From NCBI GenBank assembly GCA_048213135.1, contig PS015059.1, positions 44,231 through 108,230 of the forward strand: DNA of 64,000 bases, written 5' to 3'. The notes beneath the pieces were generated by a model. It was not told the origin of the DNA, made no database searches, and saw only the letters and a list, made by a program, of their open reading frames with translations. The position numbers and the translations under genes were made by a program. Position 1 is the first letter of the stretch, and the number at the start of each line of letters is the position of its first letter. Positions 17,599-55,657 of this stretch are shown here, piece after piece. This DNA comes from Reclinomonas americana ATCC 50394. Its lineage: Eukaryota.

Positions 17599-17874
17599 AT
17601 CTGCTTGTTTAATGTTGTAGTTTCGGTAGTAGCTATCCCCTCCTCCCAGTGCGTCAAATCGGTCCCTCCCCGGCGCTCGCCTCTCATCAACCCATCCGCC
17701 ACTGTGCGCGGGAGCAGTGCCGACTAGGTACAACGGACACCGCCACCCACTGTGGCAGCAATGGGGAAAGAGAGCGGCGAGGCCAGCAGGAAACACGACC
17801 AATTAAACACCAGAGAATCAGAGTACTCGGAGGTGCAACCTCCGGATAACGTGCTCGCCCAATATAGCGCCTGT

Positions 17875-18920
17875 TCAAGGCGACGTAGGCGTGCCGGCAT
17901 CGGAGCTCGGCGAAAGCAGCAGGGAGCTGTTCGGCGACATGGCGCTGCCGCTGTGGTGCGGCCACAAGTTCAACGCCTTCAGTTCGCGCACAAAGGCTGC
18001 GTGCACCAGCACACCAACGCGTGAGACTCACACACACAGCAAGGACAGGACGAGACATGCAAGCTCAACCTTCACGACATCTCTTCTCGGCCTTGGGTCC
18101 CTCGACGCGCACGTGCAGGCCGGTGAGGAGATCAACAATCTCCGTCAGTGTGTCACTGCGCACGGTGTGAGGAGTGCAGGGGGTATGGAGAGGGAGAAAG
18201 GAGGGAGATGGAGGGAGACGGAGGGAGGGAGGGAGGGAAGGAGGGAGAGGAGAGAAAAGAGGAAGAAGAGGGAGAGGAGAGAAACGAGGGAGAAGAGGGG
18301 GAGAGGAGAGAAATGAGGGAGTAGAGGGAGGGAGGGAGGGAGAAAGTGCAGAGGGAGAGGGGGAGTGTAAAAGGCGAGAACGTCACGCACAGAAAGAATG
18401 TGTGCGTGTGCGTGCGTGTGAGAAAGACGACAAACCTGTGGCGCAATATTTGCACAAAGCGTCCGACGAGACGCGTTGTCTGACTGCCGAGTGCCAGCTG
18501 CGCAGCATTGAGTTGCGCCACATCCCTTACAGTGACCTGCAGCGGACAGTGAGGTGGAGGACGAGTGATGGGCGGGTCGATCAGCGCTACGCAACGTTCT
18601 CAAAGTACTCCTTTTCGATCTTGTACTTGTCGGCAAAGAGCGACAGAGCGTCCCGATCAATCACCGACTCGGCTGCGCGTCGCCCAACAAACAACACACA
18701 CGAAACTCACGTGTCAGTCGTCGTCCACACGACACACATGCGCCTGTCAACTCTGCGCAACATTGAATAGCCTCCTGAATGTCAGCGGCGACCTCCGCAC
18801 GTGTTCGTGGCGCTCGCACCAGCTGCGTGACCGCTGCACGTGTGGAACGTGAGCCACCGGCCGCTGCCGCCTGCACACTCGCTTCGACTTGTTCCAGCCG
18901 CTTCTCGGCCGCTTCCATAA
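17875..18920 (-). CDS. Hypothetical protein 'gene X', copy 1 (3' exons; 5' part in gaps)
   Basis: Spliced: MEAAEKRLEQVEASV...CCAELT|AESVIDRDALSLFADKYKIEKEYFEN|VTVRDVAQL...ILRH|SDTLTEIVDLLTG...CRE|AFVRELKALNLWPHH...GTPTSP*, all GT-AG and in frame. A possible upstream exon lies at ~19990-20100. Confidence 0.65.
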
Positions 18921-19112
18921 ACNNNNNNNNNNNNNNNNNNNNNNNNNNNNNNNNNNNNNNNNNNNNNNNNNNNNNNNNNNNNNNNNNNNNNNNNNNNNNN
19001 NNNNNNNNNNNNNNNNNNNNNNNNNNNNNNNNNNNNNNNNNNNNNNNNNNNNNNNNNNNNNNNNNNNNNNNNNNNNNNNNNNNNNNNNNNNNNNNNNNNN
19101 NNNNNNNNNNNN

Positions 19113-19629
19113 GAGAGAGAGAGAGAGCAAGAGAGTGAGAGAAGTAAGTGTCTCAGAGTGTCTCAGAGTAACAGAGGGAGGAAGATAGAAAGAGAGAGTG
19201 AGTGAGAATGCCTGTCGCCCTTCTTCTGCATGCATGAGTGTGCGCGTGTGTGAGTGAGAGAAAAGAGAGAGAGAGAGAGGAGAGAATGTGTCACAGTCAA
19301 TGTAAGAACGACACAGGAATGCAATGAGCGAGCGCGTGTCTGTGAGAGAAGGAGAGAGAGAGAGGGCGAGAGTGAGAGTAAGACTGCACCCTTCTTCCCT
19401 TCACAGCATGCGTCAGTGAGCGAGTGAGAATGCAAGAGAATGTCTCTCTCATTCCTCTTTCTCTCTCATTCTCTCTCTTTACATAAGACACGCACGCACA
19501 CAGAGACACACGCACTAACCATTGTTGTATCGTCGCTCACAGCTGATGCGTCGCCTGCACAAAGAGAGAGAAGAGAGAGAGAGAAGAGAGAGGACATGGT
19601 CAACAAAACACACACACACACACACATAC

Positions 19630-19660
<31 letters not shown>

Positions 19661-19774
19661 AGGGAGAGAGAAGGGAGAGAAAGAGAAGGGAGGGAGAGAG
19701 AGGAGGGAGGGAGAGTGGGAGGGAAGGGGAGAGAGAAAGAGAGAGAGAGAGAGACAGAGAGAGAAAGAGAGAGA

Positions 19775-19831
<57 letters not shown>

Positions 19832-19976
19832 GAGGGGGAGGGAAGAGAGACAGGAGAGAGAGACAGAGAGAGAGAGAGAGAGGCAAATGCAAGAGTAAGA
19901 GAGAAAGAAAGCAATGAGAGGAGAGAGAGGAGAGAGAGAGAAAGAAAGCAAGCATGAGAGAGAGAGAGAGAGAGAC
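19113..19976. repeat. Long (GA)n/purine-rich low-complexity tract
   Basis: Nearly continuous GA/GGA repeats; the RERE/SLSL ORFs here are artefacts. Confidence 0.9.
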
Positions 19977-20240
19977 GGTGCTCACACGTACAGATGTGTC
20001 ATGGCAGTGGCCAGGACGTTGTACATCGCGTCAGTCCATTCCCAGGCACCAAAGGCACTCATACTCAACGAGAATCGCGCTCGTCTGAGTGGACGTGCTC
20101 TTGTGCGTCTGCGCGCGCGTCTGGTTCTCTCTCTCTCTCCCTCTCTCTCTCTCTCCCTCCCTCCCTCTCTCTCCCTCTCTCCCTCTCTCCCTCTCTCNNN
20201 NNNNNNNNNNNNNNNNNNNNNNNNNNNNNNNNNNNNNNNN

Positions 20241-22643
20241 ATTACTCGAATGAAACGGGATCTACAACTGGCTCAGATGCGGCGTGCGGAGGTGGAGGCG
20301 ACTCGCGATCGGCTGCGGGTTCAGCTAGAAGCGACCCAAGCTGAGCTGGAGACGACCCGCGATCGACTGCAGACTGAGCGTGAGATGGCCCGCCAGTGCG
20401 CCATCGATAAGGAGTTGGCCCAGCGACAGCTTCTTACGGTGGAGACGAACCGCAATTGGCTGCGAAATGAGCTGAAGACGACCCGCGCTCGGCTGGAGAC
20501 TGAGCTGGAGACGACCCGAGAACGGATGAAGGAGTCCCGCGATCGGCTGGAGACTGAGCTGGAGACGACCCGAGAACGGATGAAGGAGTCCCGCGATCGG
20601 CTGGAGACTGAGCTGGAGACGACCCGCGATCGGCTGGAGACTGAGCTGAAGGAGTCCCACGATCTGCTGCAACGTGAGCGGGAGGCAGCCCAGCAACAGT
20701 GTGTGAGCACCCTGGAGAACGCCCGGGAGCAGCATGCGATCGACGTGGCTCGCCTACGACACGAAGCCAACGTAATCCAGCAGTCGCTCCAACAAGAGAA
20801 CGCTGTCCTCCGTGATGCCCTCAGCGCTGCCGAGGCTGCCCACTGGGCGGCCCTTTCCTTCGCCACCGCTCATGGCCGGTCGGCGCAAAAGGTATGAAAC
20901 TTTACAAGTGCTGTCGTGCGTCGCTGCACACATGCTGCGCATGCCGCCGACCCTGACGCTGACTTCGCTTGTCTTGGCTCTCAGGCCTTTGCCAGATTCG
21001 GACTCAGGTGCGCCGAGAGAAGAAAGTCAACAGTGGCGATGAAGACACGGCAAGCTTGCCACATTCTCAGCCTGCAGGTGCATCCTTGGTGATCCCTCGT
21101 GCTATATGCAATGCGCGACAATAAGCACTGATTTTCGACAACCTGCATTCATGTGTTGTGTAATGCAGAAGTGTGTCCAGTACGAGCTTCGTGGGCGGTG
21201 TTGCCAGCTTGCGATCGAGAAGTTTGGTCATCCAGTGCACTGCTGTCGAAACTGCATCATGCTGCCGTACAAATGGCATGCTCAGCATGATAGACACGAA
21301 ATCTGTGTCACGGTAAGTGGCACAACTGGAGGTACCATGCGTCTCGGCGTCGCTCATTCTTCTCTCACGGGTGACCACATATACTTAGGCCGACGGCTAT
21401 CTGTTCTGCATCGATCGCGATACCACATCTGCGCCTGGCTACCTCACGTGGGGGCACGCAGTGGCGGCCGGAGTGGTGGCCAACGTTGACGTGCCCGACG
21501 CATTTACTCTGAACACTCGCATTCGTGTGTTCGATCGCGAGACATGTGCCCGGAAAGATACTGTGCTCCTGCCGCACATGAGTCTTCTTCTGCGGCATGC
21601 TGTCGCCACGGATACTCGAGCACGTGACGCCGGCGGCGTTCTGCCCGCCGAGATCCTCCATCATCTCAGGGTTGCCGCCGCCGCCGAGGAATCAGAGTCG
21701 ATTGGCGACGATGAAGTTGTGTGTCCCTGTATCATGACTAGCTTTTGTTCGGCGACTGACGATGTGACGACGTCACAGCTAAAAACTCTACGTTCTGTGC
21801 AACGTCGTGCTGTCAAACCTGCTCGCGAGGGCGATGATGCCGAGACGGACAAGGACGGTGACGATGCCGATGAAGAGGATGGTGACGAGCACGACAATCC
21901 CAGTGACTTCTCGTCGGAGGGCCCGTCTGAGTCTGCGCCCTCAGCTGGCGATGGTTCGAATTCGCGGTCGGCTCCGTCTCGCACGGATGCCACGAATTCG
22001 CGGTCGGAACTGACTGGCTCCGGTAACGAGCAGTCGACGCCGACTGCAGCGGCCGGTGGACACGGCGAAGGCGATGCCCACGGTGGCGAAGAAGCTGTCA
22101 CGCTTGTCGAGAAACTTGTCACGGCGATTGGCAAGCTCACCACAACTGATTTTGTGGAGTCGTGGCGGCAAGAGACCATGGTGGCTCACGAACCCGGGCC
22201 CGCCGCCGTCGACTTGTTTGCTGATACTGTCCACGGACCCACCGCGGCCATCCATGACGGCCACGACGACGCTGCTTCGGAAGATAATGACTTCCTGTCG
22301 GACGTGCGGATGACGAGCTATGATGGCAGCTTTGATGAGGAATTCGAAGACGCTGACGAGGAAGACGAGCAGCAGCAGCTGGGGGAGGAGGACGACAAGG
22401 AGGAGGAGGAGGAGGAGGAGGACGAGGAAGAGGAGGAGGTAGTGGAGGGAGCCATCGATAACGCAGTTGAGGAGGCGGAGGTGCACGATGTTGACGACGC
22501 CGTCGTCATGCGAAGCACTGCTGGAGATTGTGGTGGCGTTTCGCCGGCGAATGGTGCGGAGGCCGCAGCGAGTGCTGGCTTGATTGAGCCTGCTGAGCGA
22601 GTGCCGGAGTCAGCAGCTGGTGACCGTGAGATCAAGCGATCAC
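20241..22643 (+). CDS. 'Gene Y' copy 1: repetitive coiled coil + HNH-type endonuclease-like domain + acidic tail (both ends in gaps)
   Basis: ELETTRDRL repeats, then spliced AFARFGLRCA...QACHILSLQ|KCVQYELRGRCC...RNCIMLPYKWHAQHDRHEICVT|ADGYLF...LLPHMSLLLRHAV, then a D/E-rich tail. The AxHI...NxxxL...HxxxD...LP...LLxH pattern is that of HNH_2-type nucleases. Confidence 0.65.
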
Positions 22644-23784
22644 NNNNNNNNNNNNNNNNNNNNNNNNNNNNNNNNNNNNNNNNNNNNNNNNNNNNNNNNN
22701 NNNNNNNNNNNNNNNNNNNNNNNNNNNNNNNNNNNNNNNNNNNNNNNNNNNNNNNNNNNNNNNNNNNNNNNNNNNNNNNNNNNNNNNTTTTGCGTGCACG
22801 GTGGTACTGGTGTGGGTGCGTGCCTTCATCAGTGTGACAAATTGTAGAGGAGTTGCAGGGACAACTCGAACGATAGAGTGTGTTTTTTGTGTCCTCAGTG
22901 CACTGGCTGTGATGGTCAAGATACGATGCAAGCATACATGAAAACTTCTCTTTTAATGTGCTTGTGCGTGTTGTGTGTCCACCATCTGGGGAGCTCCATT
23001 GCGCTTGCAATGATATGGAAAGGTGCATCTGCACCTCATGAAAATCGCAGAGAAGAAGGGGGAGAAAAAAAGGCAACGAGAACGCACGACAAGCACAGCG
23101 AGTCAGCTACTGATCGCTGTCTCCCACATACACCGACTGGCACACGCTCGACACGCCCACATCGCCGTCGGATCCAGCTGCGTGCACGAACGACGCAGCG
23201 CTGTCGACTGCCACGGTGAGTAGCTGCACGTCGGTCGACANNNNNNNNNNNNNNNNNNNNNNNNNNNNNNNNNNNNNNNNNNNNNNNNNNNNNNNNNNNN
23301 NNNNNNNNNNNNNNNNNNNNNNNNNNNNNNNNNNNNNNNNNNNNNNNNNNNNNNNNNNNNNNNNNNNNNNNNNNNNNNNNNNNNNNNNNNNNNNNNNNNN
23401 NNNNNNNNNNNNNNNNNNNNNNNNNNNNNNNNNNNNNNNNNNNNNNNNNNNNNNNNNNNNNNNNNNNNNNNNNNNNNNNNNNNNNNNNNNNNNNNNNNNN
23501 NNNNNNNNNNNNNNNNNNNNNNNNNNNNNNNNNNNNNNNNNNNNNNNNNNNNNNNNNNNNNNNNNNNNNNNNNNNNNNNNNNNNNNNNNNNNNNNNNNNN
23601 NNNNNNNNNNNNNNNNNNNNNNNNNNNNNNNNNNNNNNNNNNNNNNNNNNNNNNNNNNNNNNNNNNNNNNNNNNNNNNNNNNNNNNNNNNNNNNNNNNNN
23701 NNNNNNNNNNNNNNNNNNNNNNNNNNNNNNNNNNNTACACACACACACACACCAAGTCCCCTGCTCACTCTACCACACACGCAG

Positions 23785-23870
23785 GAAAACGAGTTCTTTG
23801 CCAGCGTGTTGCAATGTCGTCTCGCCGAGGCACAGGCGTACTTGACAGCTGCCGGTCTTCCACTCGCGGC
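23785..23870 (+). pseudogene. Truncated duplicate of the first visible exon of the ankyrin-acyl-CoA synthetase gene, at the duplication junction
   Basis: GAAAACGAGTTCTTTGCCAGCGTGTTGCAA...TCGCGGC matches 29364-29449, then switches abruptly to unit-start sequence at 23874. Confidence 0.8.
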
Positions 23871-23902
23871 TGCATAATGTGCTCGCCCAATCTAGCGCCC
23901 GC

Positions 23903-26345
23903 TCAAGGCGACGTAGGCGTGCCGGCATCGGAGCTCGGCGAAAGCAGCAGGGAGCTGTTCGGCGACATGGCGCTGCCGCTGTGGTGCGGCCACAAGTTCA
24001 ACGCCTTCAGTTCGCGCACAAAGGCTGCGTGCACCAGCACACCAACGCGTGAGACTCACACACACAGCAAGGACAGGACGAGACATGCAAGCTCAACCTT
24101 CACGACATCTCTTCTCGGCCTTGGGTCCCTCGACGCGCACGTGCAGGCCGGTGAGGAGATCAACAATCTCCGTCAGTGTGTCACTGCGCACGGTGTGAGG
24201 AGTGCAGGGGGGGATGGAGAGGGAGAGAGGAGGGAGAGGAAGGAGAGAGAGAGGGAAGGAGGAAGGGAGGGAGAGGAGAGAAAAGAGGAAGAAGAGGGAG
24301 AGGAGAGAAACGAGGGAGAAGAGGGGGAGAGGAGAGAAATGAGGGAGTAGAGGGAGGGAGGGAGGGAGAAAGTGCAGAGGGAGAGGGGTGTGGAAAAGGC
24401 GAGGACGTCACGCACAGAAAGAATGTGTGCGTGTGCGTGCGTGTGAGAAAGACGACAAACCTGTGGCGCAATATTTGCACAAAGCGTCCGACGAGACGCG
24501 TTGTCTGACTGCCGAGTGCCAGCTGCGCAGCATTGAGTTGCGCCACATCCCTTACAGTGACCTGCAGCGGACAGTGAGGTGGAGGACGAGGGATGGGCGG
24601 GTCGATCAGCGCTACGCAACGTTCTCAAAGTACTCCTTTTCGATCTTGTACTTGTCGGCAAAGAGCGACAGAGCGTCCCGATCAATCACCGACTCGGCTG
24701 CGCGTCGCCCAACAAACAACACACACGAAACACACGTGTCAGTCGTCGTCCACACGACACACATGCGCCTGTCAACTCTGCGCAACATTGAATAGCCTCC
24801 TGAATGTCAGCGGCGACCTCCGCACGTGTTCGTGGCGCTCGCACCAGCTGCGTGACCGCTGCACGTGTGGAACGTGAGCCACCGGCCGCTGCCGCCTGCA
24901 CACTCGCTTCGACTTGTTCCAGCCGCTTCTCGGCCGCTTCCATAACCNNNNNNNNNNNNNNNNNNNNNNNNNNNNNNNNNNNNNNNNNNNNNNNNNNNNN
25001 NNNNNNNNNNNNNNNNNNNNNNNNNNNNNNNNNNNNNNNNNNNNNNNNNNNNNNNNNNNNNNNNNNNNNNNNNNNNNNNNNNNNNNNNNNNNNNNNNNNN
25101 NNNNNNNNNNNNNNNNNNNNNNNNNNNNNNNNNNNNNNNNNNNNNNNNNNNNNNNNNNNNNNNNNNNNNNNNNNNNNNNNNNNNNNNNNNNNNNNNNNNN
25201 NNNNNNNNNNNNNNNNNNNNNNNNNNNNNNNNNNNNNNNNNNNNNNNNNNNNNNNNNNNNNNNNNNNNNNNNNNNNNNNNNNNNNNNNNNNNNNNNNNNN
25301 NNNNNNNNNNNNNNNNNNNNNNNNNNNNNNNNNNNNNNNNNNNNNNNNNNNNNNNNNNNNNNNNNNNNNNNNNNNNNNNNNNNNNNNNNNNNNNNNNNNN
25401 NNNNNNNNNNNNNNNNNNNNNNNNNNNNNNNNNNNNNNNNNNNNNNNNNNNNNNNNNNNNNNNNNNNNNNNNNNNNNNNNNNNNNNNNNNNNNNNNNNNN
25501 NNNNNNNNNNNNNNNNNNNNNNNNNNNNNNNNNNNNNNNNNNNNNNNNNNNNNNNNNNNNNNNNNNNNNNNNNNNNNNNNNNNNNNNNNNNNNNNNNNNN
25601 NNNNNNNNNNNNNNNNNNNNNNNNNNNNNNNNNNNNNNNNNNNNNNNNNNNNNNNNNNNNNNNNNNNNNNNNNNNNNNNNNNNNNNNNNNNNNNNNNNNN
25701 NNNNNNNNNNNNNNNNNNNNNNNNNNNNNNNNNNNNNNNNNNNNNNNNNNNNNNNNNNNNNNNNNNNNNNNNNNNNNNNNNNNNTCCGCATACGCAACGT
25801 TCGTTCTCGAGGTACTCCTTCAGTGTCTTGAACTTGGATTCCTCCTCGTACGCCATTTGACACAATGAACACGACTGCGAAGTTTATGAACAGGACACGC
25901 GGAATCATCTCAACTCGGGAGCTGGTGTTTCTGCAGGCAGCACTGGAGTAGTGCGAAGGGGTGTGCCTTACGTGTGTCGTGATGCAATGAGCGGCACGAC
26001 GTCGATTGAGATGTCAAGTCACGCGCGCGACGTTCCCCGAAGGTCACTTTACATAAGCGCGTTTCCGGCCGTTTCTTTCTTTGTCGCTGCTGGTGAGATG
26101 AGGTGAGTGCATCGGACGCTTTCATGGTCACATGGATGCATGCCTGACAGTCCGAGATGCAGCACGGCATCAGCGCCACCCGCAGGTACCGGTGGCATGC
26201 CCACCAGTTCAAAGATGCATATGAAGAAGGCGTCAGTGGCCCTTGCGGTTGCTCTCGCAAGTGCTTCGGCCCCGTCGCATGCTGCCTCTGGCTCCTCAAG
26301 CTCTGCACCAGCGCCAGCGGCAAGGTGCGTCTGCGCCCCCTGTAG
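23903..26345 (-). CDS. Hypothetical protein 'gene X', copy 2
   Basis: Same 3' exons and stop (23903) as copy 1; extra upstream exon SCSLCQMAYEEESKFKTLKEYLENE at ~25795-25873; 5' end uncertain. Confidence 0.6.
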
Positions 26346-26401
26346 AGTTGCAGACTTTGAGTCGACCGAGTGCGCGTGGGAGAGAGAGAGAGACGGGGAG
26401 G

Positions 26402-26441
<40 letters not shown>

Positions 26442-26486
26442 GAGAGGAGGAGANNNNNNNNNNNNNNNNNNNNCTCTCCTCCCCTC

Positions 26487-26533
<47 letters not shown>

Positions 26534-26603
26534 CACCCTCTTTTAGTGGTCAAGCTTATCATCTGTTGCGGGTCTGATGACTGACTTTGTTGTTCATTCG
26601 CAG

Positions 26604-29300
26604 CCTTGGCGTTGCCCCATCGGTAGCCGCTGCTGCGAACGCACCTCAAGATGATGTTGCTCGGTTGGCGGCCGCGGACGCACCCGTTCAAGCGCAGCTG
26701 CAGCGCTTGCTGGAACCGGAGGATCAAGAACTGGCTCAGATGCGGCGTGCGGAGGAGGAGGCGACTCGGCTGCGGGTTCAGCTAGAAGCGACCAAGACTG
26801 ACCAAAAGACGACCCGCGATCGACTGCAGACTGAGCGTGAGATGGCCCGCCAGTGTGCCATCGATCAGGAGTTGGCCCAGCTACAGCTTCTCAGGCTGCG
26901 AACTGAGCTGGAGACGACCCAGACTGAGCTTGAGGAGACCCAGGCTGAGCTGGAGAAGACCCGCGATCGGCTGCGGACTGAGCGTGAGATGGCCCGCCAG
27001 TGTGCCATCGATCAGGAGTTGGCCCAGCAACAGCTTCTCAGGCTGCGAACTGAGCTGGAGACGACCCAGACTGAGCTGGAGAAGACCCGCGATCGGCTGC
27101 GGACTGAGCGTGAGATAGTCCGACAGTGTGCGAGCGAACTGGAGTTGGTCCAGCAACAGCATCTTACGGCGGAGATGGCCCGCAATAGGCTGCGAAGTGA
27201 GCTGGAGACGACCCAGACTGAGCTGGAGAAGACCCAGGCTGAGCTGGAGAAGACCCGCGATCGGCTGCGGACTGAGCGTGAGATAGCCCGGCAGTGTGCG
27301 AGCGAACTGGAGTTGGTCCAGCAACAGCATCTTACGGCGGAGACGACCCGCAATAGGCTGCGAAATGAGTTGAAGACGACCCGCGATCGGCTGGAGACTG
27401 AGTTGGAGACGACCCAGACTGAGCTGGAGACGACCCGCGATCGACTGCGGACTGAGCGTGAGATGGCCCGCCAGTGTGCCATCGATAAGGAGTTGGCCCA
27501 GCAACAGCTTCTTACGGCGGAGACGACCCGTAATAGGCTGCGAAATGAGTTGAAGACGACCCGCGATCGGCTGGAGACTGAGTTGGAGACGACCCAGACT
27601 GAGCTGGAGAAGACCCGCGATCGACTGCGGACTGAGCTGGAGATGGCCAAGCAGCGTGCGGGCGAACTGAATGAGGCTCTGCAGATTCGTGCGGAGCTGG
27701 AGACAGCCAACGATTGGCTGCGGGCTGAGTTGCAAGCGCGTGCACTCGTTCTGGAGATGGACCAGGAGCAGCATGCGATCGATGTGGCTCGCTTACGACA
27801 CGAGGCCAACGTAAGGCAGCAGTCGCTCCAACAAGAGAACGCTGACCTCCGTGATACCCTCAGCGCTGCCGAGGCTGCCCACTTGGCGACCCTTTCCTTC
27901 GCCACCGCTCGCGCACCTGCAGCTCAGCAGGTTTGGCTCAACGTGCACTCTTGTTGCTGAGCGCGGGCGCCGACCTACTGACCGTCATATTTTTTGCTTT
28001 CTGTCAGATATTTACCGCCGGCGGACTTTCTTGCTCTCGCGATGCGGGCTCAACTCTGGTGCGCCATGTGGATGGACTGGAAGCTGTACACATTGTCAGC
28101 CTTAAGGTGCATCTTTGATGATCCCTCGTGCCGTAATGCGCGACAACAAGCACTGACCTCCGAACGGCATGGCGGCGCATTTGTCGTGTATTGCAGGAGT
28201 GTGTCCAGTACAAGCTTCGTGAGCGGTGCTGCCAGCTTGCGATTGACAAGACTGGCCATCCGGTGTACTGTTGCCGTAATTGCATCATGCTTCCGCGGAC
28301 GTGGCGTCAGCAGTTTGAAGCTCACAAAATCTGTGTCACGGTATGCAACCAGGAACATCACGACTGTCATCACACATGTTTTCCTCACTTGGTTGGTAAT
28401 TTGCTGCAGGCTGATGGGTTTCTTTTCCGCACCAGTCCACGGCGTACCTACCTCACGTGGGCACACGCAGTGCTGGCCGGGGTGGTGGCCCAAGTGCCCG
28501 ACGCATTTGCTCACCGTCCGCGCACTCGCGTTCGGGTGTTTAATCGCGTGGAATGCACCAGAGAGGATACTGTGCTCCTGCCGCACATGAGTCTTCTTCT
28601 GCAGCACGCTGTCGCCACGGATTCTCGAGCATGTCGCACCGGCCGTGTCGACAACGCCGTCCCGGAGGGTTTGCTTACTGCACTGAGAGCTGCTGTTGCC
28701 GAGGAGACGCCGACAAACGAGAACCAAGTTGTGTAATCTTGTAGCGCATGGATGTCACCCGTCGACACAATCCTTCTCTCATATTTCTCGTGCAGGTACG
28801 AGCGCTGCGAGACTTGCTCGGTGGTCAGAGTTCAGCTTGCATTAATATGAGCGAGGAAGCCAGCGCCGTCACGCTTGTCGAGAAACAAGTCAGGAAGATA
28901 CGCAAGCTCAACACGACTGCTTTTGTGGAGTCGTGGCGGCAAGAGACCGTGGTGGCTCACGAACCCGGGCCCGCCGCCATCGACTTGATTGCTGATACCA
29001 TCCACGGACCCACCGTGGCCAGCCATGACGGCCACGACGACGTAGTAGCGGAGGATTATGACATCCTGTCAGAAATTCGCTTGATGAGCTATCAAGATCT
29101 AGAAGACGCTGACGATGAGGAGGGTGAGGAAGAGGAGGAGAAGGGAGCCATCGACAACGCAGTTGAGGAGGCGGAGGTGCACGATGTTGACGACGCCGTC
29201 GTCATGCGAAGCACTGCTGGAGACTGTGGTGGCGTTTCGCCGGCGAATGGTGCGGAGGCCGCAGCGAGTGCTGGCTTGATTGAGCCTGAGCCAGCAGCCA
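26604..29300 (+). CDS. 'Gene Y' copy 2: expanded coiled-coil repeats + HNH-like domain (last His replaced by Arg) + acidic tail
   Basis: ORF 26587-27960 of ELETTQT/RDRLRTERE repeats (180-nt period visible, 27361 vs 27541); spliced IFTAGGLSCS...LEAVHIVSLK|ECVQYKLRERCC...RNCIMLPRTWRQQFEAHKICVT|ADGFLF...LLPHMSLLLQHAV. Same intron positions as copy 1. Confidence 0.65.
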
Positions 29301-29363
29301 NNNNNNNNNNNNNNNNNNNNCACACACACACCAAGTCTCCTGCTCACTCTACCACACACGCAG

Positions 29364-32300
29364 GAAAACGAGTTCTTTGCCAGCGTGTTGCAAGGTCGTC
29401 TGGCCGAGGCACAGGCCTACTTGACTGCTGCCGGTCTCCCATTCGCGGCCGACGCCGACTGGGTGCAGCACTTGTTGCAGTGGCGCGGAGAGGTGCCGGC
29501 AGTCGCCATCGCCAGTGCTGCTCCGCAGACACGCGCGCGAAAATCGGCATCGTCATCATCGTCAAGTGTACATGCGGATGTGCTGAATGCGGCGGTGATG
29601 ATTGGTGCTGAGGAGCATGTACTGCGCTTCCTTGTGCGCGCAGGTGTGTGTGTTTTGTGTTTGGAAGCAGCGGTGGTGAGAGAGTGATTGATTGTGATTA
29701 TTCCGCATGCAAAGGCGCCAATCCGTTCCGTCGTGATGTCGACGGCTTGTCGGCACTGGATCGTGCTCGCGAGTCGAAGCGCGGTTTGCATTCGCGTCTC
29801 CTCTTTTGTGCTGCGGTTTGTGTCGGCAAGAGTTTGACAGTGTTGCGTGCAGGTGACGTGTATGAGTTCTTGTTGCGAGAGTTTGAGGCGCATCATGCGC
29901 AGCGCGAGGTGCAGTACCACAACTTCCGTGATGAGATCGAGGCGCAGCACCCGATTGACGCCGAGGCGCTGTTGAGTGGCGGAGAGAATTTGATTTGTGT
30001 GTTGTCTCGTGCTATGCGCTCACTCTGTTACGATTGGTCGCGAAGCGTACGCAAGTTCGTGCCACACACGATCCTCTCCACGTTCTGGGACAATGTCAAT
30101 GTTGCGTCGCGTGTTGCTGGTGGTGTGGCCGCACTGCGGTGTGGCGGCAGTCGAGACTGACCTGTTGTCGTGTGCGTAGAATCCGGAGAGCGCCGACGAA
30201 CCGTGCTTCATGGAGCGCCACGATGGGCAATGGGTGGCGACCACGTGGCGGCAGTACGGCGAACTGGCCATGTGGGTCGCCTTTTATCTTCTTAGAGTAA
30301 TGCCTGGACTCGCTGCGCTCACTCATTGAACTCGCACAGTGCTGTTGGCAAATCGCTGCGTGCACTTGGTCTGCGACACATTGCGGAGGCAGAGGAGAAG
30401 CACAAGGTGGCGGTGTTGTCGCGCAACTGTTACGGCGTGATGCATCATTGGTGGTGTCAGTGTGCTTGCTTTACCGACACCGTGTCTGTCAGGTGTCAAA
30501 TTCATGGCCGCCGACATGGGAGCCATGTGCATTGGCGCCGCAACCATGGGCATCTACTGCAGCGAAGCCACATCAGGCGTGCAGTACATGTTGCGTGTTG
30601 ATGTTTGTGTACGCGCGTGTGTGGCCGGTGGAAATGTACTCATGCGGCAGCAGTGTGGAGAACTCGAGCAGCCACGTCTTGTTTGTCGACGGCATCGAGC
30701 AACTGCGCAAGACTGACCCCTTCCGTGATAGCATGCCGCCGTATTTTCGTGTTCGTCTCCCAGCGCATTCACTCGCGTCGTGTGTTTTGACACTCAACAA
30801 AGTGTGCGTACGTTCGTAGGTGGTTGTGTTTGAGTCCAAGCCTGGCGAGTTGCCGGCCGATGAGCGTGTGCTCTCGTGGAGCCAGTTCATTGCGCTGGGG
30901 AGGTGAGAGACCGGCGGAGGTGTTCTTGCTGGATATGCGTGACTCACTTTGTGGTCGGTGCAGCGAGGAAGCAGATGGAATCGAAGACTTTGCGCGCTCC
31001 ATCCCTGAGGAGGAGTTGTGCATGTTGGTGTATGTGCGTGCAAAGTGTCCAGGCTTGTGTACATGTGGCGTCCTTGTTTTGACTTGTGTGACGCCTCTGC
31101 ATGCAGACCTCTGGCACAACGGGCAATCCAAAGGTGCGTCTTTTGATTCGCGCACACTTTTCGACTGACCAGCTTACGTACTCTCTCTCTTTCTTTCTTT
31201 CGCGCAGGGCGTGATGTACAGCCACATCAACCTGGCGCACCAAGTTGACGGTATGATGCAATTGCTGCCACCTGGGCGATTCGACACCCTCAGGTTAGTC
31301 GTGCTACGCCGCATGTCATGTGTGGACTTTGGTCACCACTCACCGCACCCCGCAGCTTTTTGCCACTTTGCGTGCGTGACAATGAAGTGCACTTCTATTT
31401 CCTGCACTCGTGTGCTGACTCTGCATCCTGCCTTTGTGTGTGCGTGCGCGAATCACATGCAGCACATTGTTGCGTGCTGTGGAAGCGTAGACGGTGGCCT
31501 TGTGCATCCACTCACTCCCCATTGTGTGTGTGTGTGAGTGCAGGCTGAGCGCATTCAGGGACAGGTGAAGATTGTAGTTACATCTTGTTTGCTTAGCAAG
31601 CGCAGTTTCTCATCGCCCTTCTTGCAGCTCCTGCACATTGGCAAGGTCAATTGCACGTGGTTTGGCGAGAGCGTGTACGTTGCGTTGCGCTGTGTGCCAG
31701 TATCTTTCTTTGTGCATTGATCGTGTTGACTCGGTCGCTGCCTGCATCCATACCTAAATCAGACGGTGCTGAAAGACCTTGTCGACGTGCGTCCGAGCAT
31801 GTTGCTCTGTGTCCCGCGTCTGTGGCAAAAAATTCATGACGAGGTAACTTTTTGTCGCTCGTTTGCTACTCTCCAGCGATTACTTGAATGACTTTCTCAC
31901 GTACGCTCACAAAACAGATGCGTCGCAAAGTCAAGCAGGCCGGCACCGTGAAGCAGACTCTGTTCAACACGGCGCTCTCGATCGGCGACCAGGTGCGCGT
32001 TCTTCGCAACAACGGCCAGTCGATTCCACTTCTGCTCCGAGCCAAGTGGGCAGTGATGAAGATGCTTGTGGTCAACAAGGTGTGCGCGTCGTCGTGCCAA
32101 GCACACGTCAGTTTCAAGTTCACTAACGTTGGCTGTGTGTCCATGTGTGTCTCTAGGTCAAGGTCTGCACTGCGTACCACTCCCCATTTCCGTCTTGTCA
32201 GCGTCACTTATGCCGTCGTTGTGCAGCGCGCGCTCGGCCTCGACCGGTGCTACATGCTGGCCTCGGGTGCCAGTGCTCTTTCGGCTGAGGTTCTTGCCGT

Positions 32301-36970: not shown

Positions 36971-37417
36971 GCAACATACGTTGCAAGACGCGATCGGCCC
37001 GGACAAGAAATCAATGTCGAAAATAGTCGCGACCTGACTGCGGTTCAATGGACCAGAGCAGATGCAGCACTCGCTTGACAGTGTTTGCGGACGGTCAGTG
37101 CAGCTACATAGACACCGCGCAGCCCACCTGGTGAGAGACTCCCTGCATTTTCAGGCGATCACTGGTAGATGCTCATTGTTGTGTATGGATCAGTGAAGTT
37201 TCTATTATTCACTGCAATTCGACACGATTCGAACATGCCGGTTTTTGCCGCGCAGATTGCTGGCAAGTTTGGTGCCAGTGGACGTGGATAAAAGCGTCAG
37301 TCGACGCCGGTCGAGAGTAGAAACACTTTCAACACCAACTCAAGAGACAAGACAACCAGGAAGCAACAGCAACACAACAACNNNNNNNNNNNNNNNNNNN
37401 NAACAACAACAACAATC

Positions 37418-38110
37418 ATGCAGATCTTCGTCAAGACCCTCACCGGCAAGACCATCACTCTCGACGCTGAGCCGACCACCACCGTCGAGGCCTTCAAGGA
37501 GCTCATCCGCAACAAGGAGGGCATCCCCGCCGACCAGCAGCGCCTGATCTACGCCGGCAAGCAGCTGGACGACGCCCGCACTCTCGGCGACTACAACATC
37601 ACCAAGGAGGCCACCATTCACCTGGTGCTCCGTCTGCGCGGTGGCATGCAGATTTTTGTCAAGACCCTCACCGGCAAGACCATCACCCTCGACGCCGAGC
37701 CGACCACCACCGTCGAGGCCTTCAAGGAGCTCATCCGCAACAAGGAGGGCATTCCAGCCGACCAGCAGCGCCTGATCTACGCCGGCAAGCAGCTGGACGA
37801 CGCACGCACACTCGGCGACTACAACATCACCAAGGAGGCCACCATTCACCTGGTGCTCCGTCTGCGCGGTGGCATGCAGATCTTCGTCAAGACCCTGACC
37901 GGCAAGACCATCACCCTCGACGCTGAGCCGACCACCACCGTTGAGGCCTTCAAGGAGCTCATCCGCAACAAGGAGGGCATCCCCGCCGACCAGCAACGCC
38001 TGATCTACGCCGGCAAGCAGCTGGACGACGCCCGCACACTCGGCGACTACAACATCACCAAGGAGGCCACCATTCACTTGGTGCTCCGTCTGCGCGGCGG
38101 CCGCTGCTGA
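37418..38110 (+). CDS. Polyubiquitin-like precursor: three identical, strongly divergent ubiquitin units plus RC tail; intronless
   Basis: 3 x 228-nt units [76 protein letters not shown]; units differ only at synonymous sites; strong C/G-ending codon bias. Confidence 0.95.
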
Positions 38111-42410: not shown

Positions 42411-43805
42411 CTACTGACTGTCGTCACCGGCCGCTTCACCCTCCTTGTCCAAGCCGTACTTTTCTCTCACCGCCGCCAACTCCTCCTGCCGCTTCTTCAC
42501 GTCGAGTCGTTGTTGCATCTTTTGTTGTTGATAGTATAGCACAATCAGGTATCGGTCCAGGACGTTGAAACCGTTCAAGTGATCCAGCGCCTGCTTGGCA
42601 TCGAAAATGTCCTCGAAGACGACAAAGGCGGTGCCGCGGGTGTCCTTCTCGCAGCCACTGGTGAAGGGGAGGGTCAAGGGAGAGCAGGATGACGATGAGC
42701 GATGTGATGAACGAGAGACAGCAAGAAGAATGAGAAGAACAGAGAGTCAGCAAGAAGAACGAAAGGAGGATGGGTGACGATACGAAGAAGAGTGAGATGC
42801 TTGCTGCTTGCATCACCAACGATGAAGGAAGAGACAGCACGAGCAATTGAGTCAAACAACTGCAGAGAGTCGGAGGGTGGGTGACGATACGAAGAAGAGT
42901 AGATGCTTGCTGCTTGCATCACCAACGATGAAGGAAGAGACAGCACGAGCAGTGGAGTCAAACAACTGCAGAGAGTCGGCAAGAAGAACGAAAGGAGGAT
43001 GGGTGACGATACGAAGAAGACTAAGATGCTTGCTGCATGCATCAACAACAATGAAGGAAGAGACAGCACGAGCAATGGAGACAAACAACTGCAGAGAGTC
43101 AGCAAGAAGAACGAAAGGAGGATGGGTGACGATACGAAGAAGAGTGAGATGCTTGCTGCATGCATCACCAACGATGAAGGAAGAGACAGCACGAGCAATT
43201 GAGTCAAACAACTGCAGACTATCAGCAAGAAGAACGAATGCTGGGTTCGCAGCATGCACCACCAACGATGAAGGAAGAGACAGCAAGAGAAGTGGAGTCC
43301 AACGATTGCAGAGAGTCAGCAAGAAGAACGAAAGGAGGATGGGTGACGATACGAAGAAGAGTGAGATGCTTGCTGCATGCATCACCAACGATGAAGGAAG
43401 AGACAGCAAGAGCAGTAGAGAGTCGGCAAGAAGAAAAGATGGATGGGCGACGATACGAAGAAGAGTGAGATGCTTGCTGCATGCATCACCGACGATGAAG
43501 GATAGCGTGGTTGTGGAAATGAGCGAGAGACTAAGAAGGTGGATCAGCAAGCGACAGCAAGATGGATGTGTCCCCTCTCATTTCCTCTTCTCCTCCCCCT
43601 TATGCGCAACAGTCGAATCTGCCTAATGGCCCCAAAGCGCCCGAAAATGTCATACATCTCCTCCGCCTTGATGTTGTACGGCAAGTTCCTGTGTGACACA
43701 CACACACAGAAAAAATTGAGTGTCTCGTGCAATGCAGACACAGCATGCACAGCAACACACACCGAACGTAGAGAATGCGAGAGCACTCCGGTGGCAACCG
43801 CGTCT
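42411..43805 (-). CDS. SF3B6: Splicing factor 3B subunit 6 (p14), RRM; first exon not located
   Basis: [82 protein letters not shown]. Confidence 0.95.
42711..43500. repeat. Intronic minisatellite, ~123-bp unit, ~7 partly truncated copies, in the last intron of SF3B6
   Basis: GCAAGAAGAACGAAAGGAGGATGGGTGACGATACGAAGAAGAGTGAGATGCTTGCTGC recurs at 42751, 42979, 43102 and 43319, with variants at ~42875, 43225 and 43426. Confidence 0.9.
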
Positions 43806-53300: not shown

Positions 53301-55657
53301 TCTGGGCCAGCGCCGCAACGTCGTCATCTATCGCCTGATCACCTGCGGCACCATCGAGGAGAAGATCTACCGCAAGCAGGTGTTCAAGAACGCGCTCATG
53401 AAGAGCACGAGTGAGAAGCGACAGCAGTACAGGTGTGTGTGCAGGTGATAAGTGATGGATGGCGTGCAGATGACTGACTGACTGACTTTGTGGTTCGGTC
53501 AGATACTTTTCGCGACAGGAGCTGCGCGATCTATTCAAGCTCGACGATCACCACATGTCGGAGACGCAGAAGCAGCTGCACGAGTTGCACGCACACCAGC
53601 GCGTCACTGATGCTGATTTGGATGCGCATTTGGAGCGCCTGTCGCAGTTTGGTGCGGCACTTCGTGTCGGTCGGTGCTCTCTATCTTTTTCTCACTCCCC
53701 ACGACAGGCATCTACGGTGTGAGTGATCATGATCTGTTGTTCAAGCGGGAGGTAGACGACGACGTGACGGACGCGGCGGCGCACCAACAGGTGTTGACTG
53801 TGGTACGTGCGCGTGAGTGTTTGTGGCGAGTGCTGCCGTGCAGTGCTGTTCGCCTGACGTGCGCATGGTCGTGCAGGTCGACAAGCGCACCGAGAAGCTC
53901 ATTCTCTCCTCTGCCACCAAGAAGAAGCCACCGGCACGTGATGACATACGCAGCACGCCATTTACCGTCAACCCTGGCGACAGGCCACTGCACAAACCAT
54001 CCGCACTGGTCACTGCACTGCAATCGGTGCCTCGCAGTCTGGCGCCACCCTCGGCGGGCAGTGCGACCTCCAATCGGTCGGTGCTGTGTACGTGATCGTT
54101 GTCCTCTTGTGCAACACAAGCTAACAGGCAGTGTGTCACAGATTTGTCGGAGCTAGCCAACCGCGGTTGTCGACAGAGAGCGAGTTGCGTGGCGGACGAG
54201 TGAGTTTGTTTGTGGCAAAAGAATGTGTTTGGCTGACATGCGAGGACGGCAGTGGACCGTTTGACTTTTCTGCCACTGCGCGCGTACTCGACGAGATCTC
54301 GAGCACGCTGCCGAAGGCCGAGAGGTCGTCAACAGGAGACGAGGCAGAGTGGCAGCCGGCGGCGGCACAAACGCCACCCAAACCCTCGCCTGCTCCTGCA
54401 CGACGCGTACTCATGTCACCGGAAGACGAGCCACTGCCGAAGCGACCGGTGCGGCCTGCCAGCGCCGCTGCACCGCCACCTGCCACAGGGCCGACACGTC
54501 GCGTGCTGGAGTCGCCTGCAGAAGATGAGGCGAGTCCTGCGCCGCCGCCCAAGTCCACCACACCTGCTCCAGCCCGCCGAGTGCTCATGTCGCCGGAAGA
54601 TGAGCCGCTGCCGAAGCGACCGCCAGCAGCAGCAGCAACAGCGGCGGCTGCATCCACGCGCCGTGTGTTGGAGTCGCCTGCGGAAGATGAGGCGACTCCT
54701 GCGCCGCCCAAGCCCACACCTGCCTCGGCCCGCCGAGTGCTCATGTCGCCGGAAGATGAGCCGCTGCCGAAGCGACCGCCACCAGCAGCAGCAGCGCCTG
54801 GACCCACACGCCGTGTGCTAGAGTCGTCTTTGGAAGATGAGGCGAGTCCTGCGCCGCCGCCCAAGTCCACCACACCTGCTCCGGCCCGCCGAGTGCTCAT
54901 GTCACCGGAAGACGAGCCGCTGCCGAAGCGACCGGTGCGGCCAGCTGCCACGGGGCCGGTGCGCCGTGTGCTGGAGTCGCCTGCAGAAGATGAGACGCCG
55001 CCGCCGCAGAAACCAGGACCTGTACGCCGGCCTTTCGGCTCGGACGCTTCGTCGTCGTACCGAACGGCGTCGATTGGTAACGATACCGGGAGCGGTGACC
55101 ACGATGACGATGATGCACCGGTTTTCATCACTCGTCCCGCTGCAACTCGATCGGTGGCCTCGGTTGGCGATGAGGACGAGGAGGAGGAAGAGGAGGATGG
55201 TGATTACGACGATGGCGACGACGAGGAAGAGGAAGAAGAGGCGGAGGAGGCAGGAGAGGAGTACGATGAGGACTCGGATGACGAGTTTTGTGCCCATCGA
55301 CAGTTTCAGCTGGTCATGGACACGACAACGGGCGAGATGAGCGTCGCTGACGAGGGTGACGAAGAAGAGGAGGCAGAAGAAGAAGAGGAGGAGGAGGAGG
55401 AAGAGGAGGACATGGATGACGACGGGCGGCGGGGCATGGTGGAGAGGTTCCGCGAGGAGTTCCTGGTGACCATCCCGCTGGAGAGTGTCACCATCGCCGA
55501 TCGTCGGCGCTACAATGCCCGTCTGCGGCAAGCGCGCCAGCTCGAAGCAGCAGGCGAAACGGAGGGCGCCCTGACCGCATACTTTGACTGCCTCGACATT
55601 TGCGACGCCGACCGCGATCTCCAGCTGCATGTTGCAGTGTTGTATCTCAAGAATTGA
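50314..55657 (+). CDS. ERCC6L: SNF2-family DNA translocase PICH/ERCC6L with N- and C-terminal TPR-like helices
   Basis: [124 protein letters not shown]; terminal [28 protein letters not shown]. Confidence 0.92.
54401..55030 (+). repeat. Coding tandem repeat in PICH: alternating [16 protein letters not shown] / [11 protein letters not shown] units (8 motifs)
   Basis: Directly visible in ORF 54131-55657. Confidence 0.9.

Follow-up and report, generated by a model that had tools for sequence, protein, structure and literature searches.

A 64,000-nucleotide (nt) stretch of DNA from Reclinomonas americana ATCC 50394 (contig PS015059.1), hereafter the window, contains two tandem copies of a multi-exon gene, gene Y, whose predicted product consists of a long repeat-built coiled coil, a Cys-rich middle domain and a strongly acidic tail. 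On balance, we lean toward the explanation that gene Y is lineage-specific and encodes a coiled-coil protein in which the middle domain is a divergent His-Me finger (beta-beta-alpha-metal) domain, that it has been duplicated, that the second copy (Y2) misses two motif residues retained by the first (Y1), and that the neighboring gene X was a bystander in this duplication.

Exon structure of gene Y

Both Y copies are open across all exons and, when joined, the exons of Y2 give 833 open codons (predicted splice model). GT-AG introns occur at identical sites in Y1 and Y2, including one with a GTGCAT donor (at 21078 and 28107), which had been noted at the same site in both copies in an original prediction made from the letters of this DNA. 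The introns that separate the coiled-coil exon from exon B, exon B from exon C, and exon C from exon D (Table 1) have Y1/Y2 lengths of 93/77, 91/90, and 76/69 nt, respectively, differences that are not multiples of 3. The corresponding lengths of exons B, C, and D are 93/99, 144/144, and 327/321 nt, i.e. they differ by 0 or 6 nt. Because frame-breaking length differences are confined to introns, and because the splice sites are common to both copies, the splice model is well supported comparatively. Exon D of Y1 possibly contains an in-frame intron (21719-21778).

The first ∼55 nt of the intron between exons B and C (21078-21135 in Y1, 28107-28160 in Y2) are far better conserved between the copies than the adjoining exon B. 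RNAalifold pairs this conserved start with the 3' end of the intron, with no covariation in an alignment of two sequences only. This segment may serve in splicing, or it may mark a short tract of conversion.

A putative divergent HNH_2 domain

We compared ∼17 query pieces with Pfam, exon by exon. Exon C of Y1 (48 amino acids (aa)), when scored alone, displays a sole match, which is to the HNH_2 family PF13391 (E=0.0092, 16.3 bits). This match covers profile positions 32-65 of 66 and is below the gathering cut-off (21 bits), a single exon rather than the spliced domain being scored. The missing first half of the profile is expected in exon B, where both copies have a Cys...A-x-H-I-[LV]-S motif, reading ACHILS in Y1 and AVHIVS in Y2, with the Cys 17-19 residues upstream. 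When exon B is shuffled, A.HI is found in 1004/200000 sequences for Y1 (0.5%) and 2228/200000 for Y2 (1.1%). Exon B is 35% identical between the copies, and the Cys and A.HI.SL account for six of its 12 shared residues. The strand expected to carry the Asn reads RNCIML in both copies and is aligned to NGLLL of the family by both HMMER and hhalign, with Gly replaced by Cys. The third element, H-x-x-F-D, is present in Y1 as H-A-Q-H-D, whereas Y2 has R-Q-Q-F-E. The codons cited in the original prediction are exact (CAC 21060, AAC 21250, and CAT 21277 in Y1, CGT 28305 in Y2), and the His>Arg replacement that it reported in Y2 is real, with a nearby Asp>Glu replacement besides.

We also used an HNH_2 profile of our own, for which 80 of 401 sampled Pseudomonadota genomes supplied the loci and 29 of the 30 best were taken. 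With this profile, the spliced Y1 domain obtains 4.6 bits, a score attained by 2/2000 shuffles, and the score of the spliced Y2 domain is attained by 29/2000. Extending the profile to the C-terminal LP...L..H element brought no gain (4.0 vs 4.6 bits). As assessed by hhalign, comparison of the two Y domains with the bacterial HNH_2 alignment brings AxHI, N, and HxxHD together in one alignment (P=0.0018). Taken together, these features suggest that the middle domain, which is ∼190 aa long and Cys-rich, is probably a true, albeit very divergent, His-Me finger domain, as far as can be judged from sequence.

Several points weigh against this assignment. The splicing of gene Y is predicted from comparison of the two copies, and Y1 may be truncated, its start being concealed in the gap at 20198-20240. 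No Y exon reaches the 21-bit cut-off of PF13391, exon C of Y2 and both B exons show no Pfam match at all and, with ∼17 pieces compared, an E value of ∼0.009 is not rare by chance. Scores against our own profile are just 2.5 to 4.6 bits, and the hhalign probability is 14.7%. In the same alignment, the gap between AxHI and N is ∼19 residues longer than in the bacterial HNH_2 family, and it is Cys-rich. An AlphaFold2 model of exons C and D of Y2, computed with the in-frame intron retained and exon B omitted, has a mean predicted local distance difference test (pLDDT) score of 38 and is uninterpretable. Finally, NCBIfam, PADLOC, and PHROGs contain nothing relevant for Y, and phmmer found 0 matches for Y among 1.84 billion representative proteins. 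The original prediction of an HNH_2 nuclease is thus upheld in the order of the motifs and in the identity of the sole Pfam match, but all scores fall below threshold. Likewise, the hidden Markov model check that it proposed, run here on single exons, yields the expected family for exon C of Y1, but at 16.3 bits instead of the 21 necessary, and nothing for Y2.

Other searches for relatives were made with parts of Y. In word-based searches limited to longer proteins, 0/1470 candidates passed for a 179-aa read-through of exons C and D of Y2, and 0/6960 for the Y1 tail. In metagenome contigs, 0/358 pattern matches were confirmed for exon D and 0/116 for exon C, and the ESM Atlas returned no usable match for exon C and exon D queries. 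The one match of exon C among PDB sequences, to a carbon monoxide (CO) dehydrogenase (E=0.7), was rejected as a chance Cys-motif match. A kinesin exon elsewhere in the window finds no database protein with >50% identity, its named matches being mostly from stramenopiles, ciliates, and plants, which argues that the source organism is without close relative in the protein collection. The failed searches for Y homologues are therefore weak evidence of novelty.

Coiled-coil rod, acidic tail, and N terminus of Y

The N-terminal part of Y consists of nested tandem repeats of 21/33/54/126-180 nt. The encoded rod contains 0-1 Pro and 1 Gly in 214 (Y1) and 402 (Y2) residues, is ∼20% acidic and 17-18% basic, and has a hydrophobic period of 3.5-3.6 (3.6 for the Y1 exon). 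AlphaFold2 models the 214 residues of the Y1 rod as a single helix spanning residues 2-212, with a mean pLDDT of 94. The nested repeats and the single-helix model bear out the repeat-built coiled coil of the original prediction, and its strongly acidic tail is equally apparent, with 23-29% Asp plus Glu and an isoelectric point of ∼4.1. The tail is probably disordered. Pfam matches of the rod (SNARE, ApoLp-III, and others) are the usual coiled-coil cross-matches.

In the Y2 model, the N-terminal MKK precedes a hydrophobic stretch of 13 residues (Kyte-Doolittle mean of 2.13 over residues 4-16), after which comes a region of small residues. As judged from hydropathy, and on a predicted exon 1, this start looks like a signal peptide. 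Within the first Y2 intron, sub-threshold Rfam matches to microRNA ('miRNA') families at 26387-26536 coincide with an inverted (GA)n/(CT)n stretch round a gap of N, and were dismissed as a low-complexity artifact.

Tandem duplication and divergence of the copies

As assessed by self-BLAST, two units of ∼6 kilobases (kb) each, 17846-23870 and 23874-29449, follow each other in the window. The X parts of these units (17846-18920 vs 23874-24945) are 98.0% identical over 1076 nt, with few differing positions, introns included, apart from an intronic microsatellite and the first 30 nt (∼98-100% identity). Identity between the Y segments is 74.4-93.5%, being in unit 1 coordinates 89.9% (20258-20434), 91.9% (20712-20871), and 74.4% (21060-21622), then further 3' 85.5% (22094-22321) and 93.5% (22409-22592). 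At the end of unit 1, a fragment named Z' (23742-23870) is 94.6% identical over 129 nt to the first visible exon (29321-29449) of gene Z, which lies downstream of Y2. The junction at 23870/23874, where Z' meets the 3' flank of X, is inside one gap-free contig (23736-24947), and X has a different left flank in each unit, namely unique DNA to the left of 17846 and the Z' fragment to the left of 23874. Because X has two different left flanks and the junction lies within one contig, we consider the duplication to be real, and not due to two haplotypes having been placed in succession. The tandem duplication reported in the original prediction is thus confirmed, as assembled.

The Y copies have not diverged evenly. 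Synonymous divergence (dS) is highest in exons B to D (∼0.52-0.58), intermediate in the terminal portion of the rod and the initial portion of the tail (0.21-0.28), and lowest at the end of the tail (0.06). Z' differs from Z by 5.4%, and the X copies differ by almost nothing. The ratio of nonsynonymous to synonymous divergence (dN/dS) is 0.35 in exon C, 0.55 in exon D, and 1.5 in exon B, the last a noisy value since it comes from 31 codons. The mosaic is consistent with an old duplication in which gene conversion homogenized the flanks, with the nuclease exons escaping. It is also consistent with the core having been replaced by that of another paralogue.

Gene X

The starts of X2 and Y2 are head to head, 364 nt apart (ATG 25856 on the minus strand and ATG 26221 on the plus strand). 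Nothing in unit 1 matches the 669 nt at 25785-26453, which comprise the first exons of X2 and Y2 and the spacer between them and are single-copy in the window, and at the corresponding place the unit 1 contig (19113-20197) consists of unrelated microsatellite-rich DNA. Of the head-to-head arrangement that had been described for both copies, the part concerning unit 2 is therefore correct, but in unit 1 the spacer has no counterpart and the start of Y1 is in a gap. The stop codon of X2 is ∼30 nt from the duplication junction, and no Pfam family was found for the X exons by exon-level scan. An unusual GTTGCG donor is apparent at three X introns (24786, 24620, and ∼25795, minus strand).

Since a single duplication event carried both genes, the adjacency of X and Y needs no functional link. 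Moreover, because X is 98% identical between units, introns included, vs 74% for the nuclease exons of Y, we interpret X as a bystander of the duplication, rather than as a partner. The original prediction had seen in X and Y a toxin/antidote, drive, or defense module. Nothing tested here supports this proposal, X showing neither co-divergence with Y nor, exon by exon, a Pfam family. A parallel with the Spok drivers of fungi, also drawn there, is limited in that Pfam scans of the pieces of Y reveal neither a kinase nor a PD-(D/E)XK domain.

Proposed model and alternative explanations

In the model that we propose, a segmental tandem duplication of ∼6 kb would have copied gene Y, together with most of its neighbor X and the first visible exon of Z. 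The Y rod would be a long alpha-helical tandem-repeat structure, most likely a dimerizing coiled coil, and the middle domain would most likely be a very divergent His-Me finger of HNH_2 type. Because Y1 retains the full motif set (C...AxHI, N, HxxHD), we infer that it would coordinate a divalent metal and cleave or nick DNA, acting as an oligomer held by the rod. Y2, in which the first His and the Asn are retained whereas Arg and Glu occupy two positions of the HxxFD element, would probably be a catalytically impaired paralogue, which may still bind DNA or pair with Y1 via the common rod. A more ambitious version of this model, which we consider improbable, is that Y1 and Y2 are an active nuclease and a pseudo-nuclease of an unseen eukaryotic His-Me finger family, in which the variable coiled coil would set pairing between copies and either Y2 or the tail would restrain activity, the whole forming a killer-protector or self/non-self module, or a secreted effector with its decoy.

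Two other readings, neither of them likely but each deserving consideration to the same extent, concern the nature of the middle domain. Y might be a secreted or compartment-targeted nuclease effector, acting on foreign or extracellular DNA much as HNH effectors of the Crinkler (CRN) type act in damaging the DNA of their hosts, with duplication and divergence reflecting an arms race. The signal peptide-like start of Y2 described above would suit such a role, as would the orphan status of Y, its many repeats, its tandem duplication, and its fast divergence, and HNH_2 domains are found in secreted CRN effectors (excerpts of PMC5289972 and PMC8044898). On the other hand, exon 1 of Y2 and its splicing are a predicted model in which the signal peptide was judged by hydropathy, the first ∼60 residues of that model show no Crinkler-type N-terminal motif, and the N terminus of Y1 is in a gap. 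Alternatively, the HNH likeness might be due to chance, Y being a lineage-specific coiled-coil/acidic protein with a Cys-rich module that binds zinc or is disulfide-bonded. This is consistent with HNH_2 scores that are all below threshold, with the lack of matches in independent libraries and of homologues in the searches above, with the uninterpretable AlphaFold2 model of exons C and D of Y2, and with eight Cys that are kept between the aligned copies in exons B and C. Chance would, however, have had to place the two halves of the motif on separate exons in the right order and to preserve the motif residues in an otherwise diverged exon B, and the sole Pfam match is to the very family that had been predicted beforehand.

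We consider the remaining two alternatives to be very unlikely. The two copies could be an assembly artifact, if the scaffolder had placed two haplotypes, or a collapsed repeat, one after the other, which would be in keeping with the concentration of gaps within 18923-29320, with the near identity of X between units, and with three public DNA runs that gave no contig over 23736-24190. This is difficult to reconcile with the junction lying in one contig, with the two different left flanks of X, and with Y copies that differ in repeat number, by an insert, and by a dS of ∼0.55. The least probable of all is a toxin/antidote or drive cassette, in which Y1 would be a toxic nuclease neutralized by X, by a degenerate Y2, or by its own acidic tail. 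It draws on a nuclease-like domain that is intact in one copy and degenerate in the other, on the divergent orientation of X2 and Y2 at 364 nt from each other, and on a loose parallel to Spok, which combines a variable coiled-coil repeat with a nuclease domain (excerpts of PMC6660238). However, the X copies, at ∼98-100% identity, are more alike than the Y copies (74-94%), which speaks against co-evolution, the X/Y spacer is found in one unit only, X is without recognizable domain, dN/dS is <1 in exons C and D, and one duplication event suffices to explain the adjacency. Moreover, the Spok nuclease is of the PD-(D/E)XK type and its antidote is a kinase domain (same excerpts), neither of which Pfam detects in Y.

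The explanation that we prefer, a duplicated coiled-coil protein with a divergent His-Me finger domain, has at present the value of a lead rather than of a result, since the evidence for it is weak and its source organism has been poorly sampled. The two copies nevertheless offer a natural pair, with the motif intact in Y1 and two residues replaced in Y2, that lends itself to a test of whether such domains act as nucleases or as DNA binders.

Features of the duplicated region and of the window

Coordinates of the features discussed are listed in Table 1.

Table 1. Features of the duplicated region, in window coordinates
Feature	Coordinates	Strand	Description
Duplication unit 1	17846-23870	.	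X1, Y1, and fragment of downstream exon (Z'); self-BLAST
Duplication unit 2	23874-29449	.	X2, Y2, and start of Z; self-BLAST
X1	17875-18920	-	Same five exons as X2, 98% identical, introns included; upstream are a gap and unrelated DNA
Y1 coiled-coil exon	20250-20891	+	Open frame; 33- and 54-nt tandem repeats; 5' end lost to gap 20198-20240
Y1 exon B	20985-21077	+	Cys...A-C-H-I-L-S; first His codon at 21060
Y1 exon C	21169-21312	+	Cys-rich, then CCRNCIML (Asn 21250) and W-H-A-Q-H-D (His 21277); partial PF13391 match
Y1 exon D and acidic tail	21389-22642	+	Remainder of domain with LLPHMSLLLRH; enters gap 22644-22787
Z' fragment	23742-23870	+	Copy of first visible exon of Z (29321-29449); stop just past junction; from list of open reading frames
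X2	23903-25856	-	ATG 25856 in first exon, gap 24948-25784 (837 N), then five in-frame exons and stop
X2 five exons	24946-24787, 24697-24621, 24561-24461, 24183-24098, 24024-23903	-	Spliced frame open for 181 codons
Y2 putative exon 1	26221-26324	+	ATG 26221; signal-peptide-like start; frame stays open in splice model
Y2 coiled-coil exon	26604-27930	+	Repeat units of 126-180 nt
Y2 exon B	28008-28106	+	Cys...A-V-H-I-V-S
Y2 exon C	28197-28340	+	Asn retained; His>Arg (CGT 28305), Asp>Glu; no Pfam match
Y2 exon D	28410-28730	+	Splice model
Y2 acidic tail exon	28796-29299	+	Enters gap 29301-29320

The window is a gappy eukaryotic scaffold with 12 runs of N, seven of which are within 18923-29320. Its guanine-plus-cytosine content is 0.55-0.62 in most 2-kb bins, (GA)n and (CA)n microsatellites are abundant, and genes are interrupted by many short GT-AG introns. 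Gene Z (29364-30157, plus strand), for which an exon-level scan found no Pfam family, has a splice acceptor but no ATG at its start in the window. Therefore, either the 20-N gap contains its 5' exons or Z is a continuation of Y2. After the Y1 tail and before Z', a stop-terminated open frame (23107-23238, minus strand), which is mostly hidden by the gap at 23241-23735 and has no Pfam match, may be another small gene. Elsewhere, 37415-38100 (plus strand) encodes at least three tandem 76-aa units of the ubiquitin family (PF00240, E=4e-30), in 228-nt units that are 96-97% alike. We take this array to depart at many positions from canonical ubiquitin, and it may be a divergent polyubiquitin-like gene. 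Self-comparison reveals further internal tandem repeats, with 80-93% identity, at 42700-43500 and 54372-54994.

Comparison with known systems

The Spok proteins resemble Y in that a variable-length repeat encodes an N-terminal coiled coil, with a nuclease-type domain downstream that is required for killing (PMC6660238, cited, like the other papers in this section, from excerpts). Their coiled coil is ∼40 aa long, compared with 200-440 aa in Y. Their nuclease is a PD-(D/E)XK rather than a His-Me enzyme, and it is accompanied by a C-terminal kinase domain for resistance (PMC6660238), which is absent from the Pfam scans of Y. Because Y has neither the kinase nor a PD-(D/E)XK domain, the parallel stops at a variable coiled coil combined with some nuclease.

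Similarity to the Crinkler effectors is closer in the domain and weaker in the N terminus. Crinkler effectors have an N-terminal header, with an LxLFLAK-type motif after the signal peptide. We did not see this motif on reading the first ∼60 residues of the Y2 model, and the coiled coil follows, so that in Y a rod stands in place of the header. Like Y, the CR-HNH Crinkler effectors, as far as excerpts describe them, have a eukaryotic HNH_2-type domain toward the C terminus of a protein that is modular, evolves rapidly, and may be secreted, a likeness drawn from their description. In AeCRN13 and BdCRN13, the HNH-like motif is required for DNA binding and for triggering a DNA-damage response (PMC5289972), and PvCRN16 and PvCRN23 also carry HNH_2 (PMC8044898). 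In the 2017 classification of His-Me fingers by Jablonska et al. (PMC5714182), PF13391 appears in group 6, with the restriction enzymes AlwI, BbrI, and HphI and 120 fungal members, and in group 38, 'eukaryotic pathogens effector CR-HNH', with 132 eukaryotic members (Table 1 of that paper). The eukaryotic members in that table are thus fungal members and Crinkler effectors.

HNH_2 (PF13391) itself shares with Y the order of motifs (C...A-x-H-I, N-x-x-x-L, and, intact in Y1, H-x-x-[F/H]-D), with a partial Pfam match of exon C of Y1. In Y, the Pro of HIxP is replaced by Ser and the Gly of NG by Cys, and the score is below the cut-off. Compared with bacterial HNH_2 proteins, Y has a Cys-rich loop between the first His and the Asn that is ∼19 residues longer, an N-terminal partner that is a coiled coil of 200-440 aa and not a DNA-recognition domain, an added acidic tail, and a eukaryotic host in which the gene has introns. 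The C-terminal LPxRF.P...L..H of the bacterial family recalls by eye the LLPHMSLLLxH of Y, although the profile did not align it. A rod followed by an HNH_2-like domain and an acidic tail was not met in the excerpts of PMC5714182, PMC5289972, PMC8044898, and PMC6660238, no literature search being aimed at it. If the middle domain of Y is a true His-Me finger, the eukaryotic repertoire of HNH_2 would gain an architecture in which a repeat-built coiled coil is combined with an HNH_2-like domain and an acidic tail.

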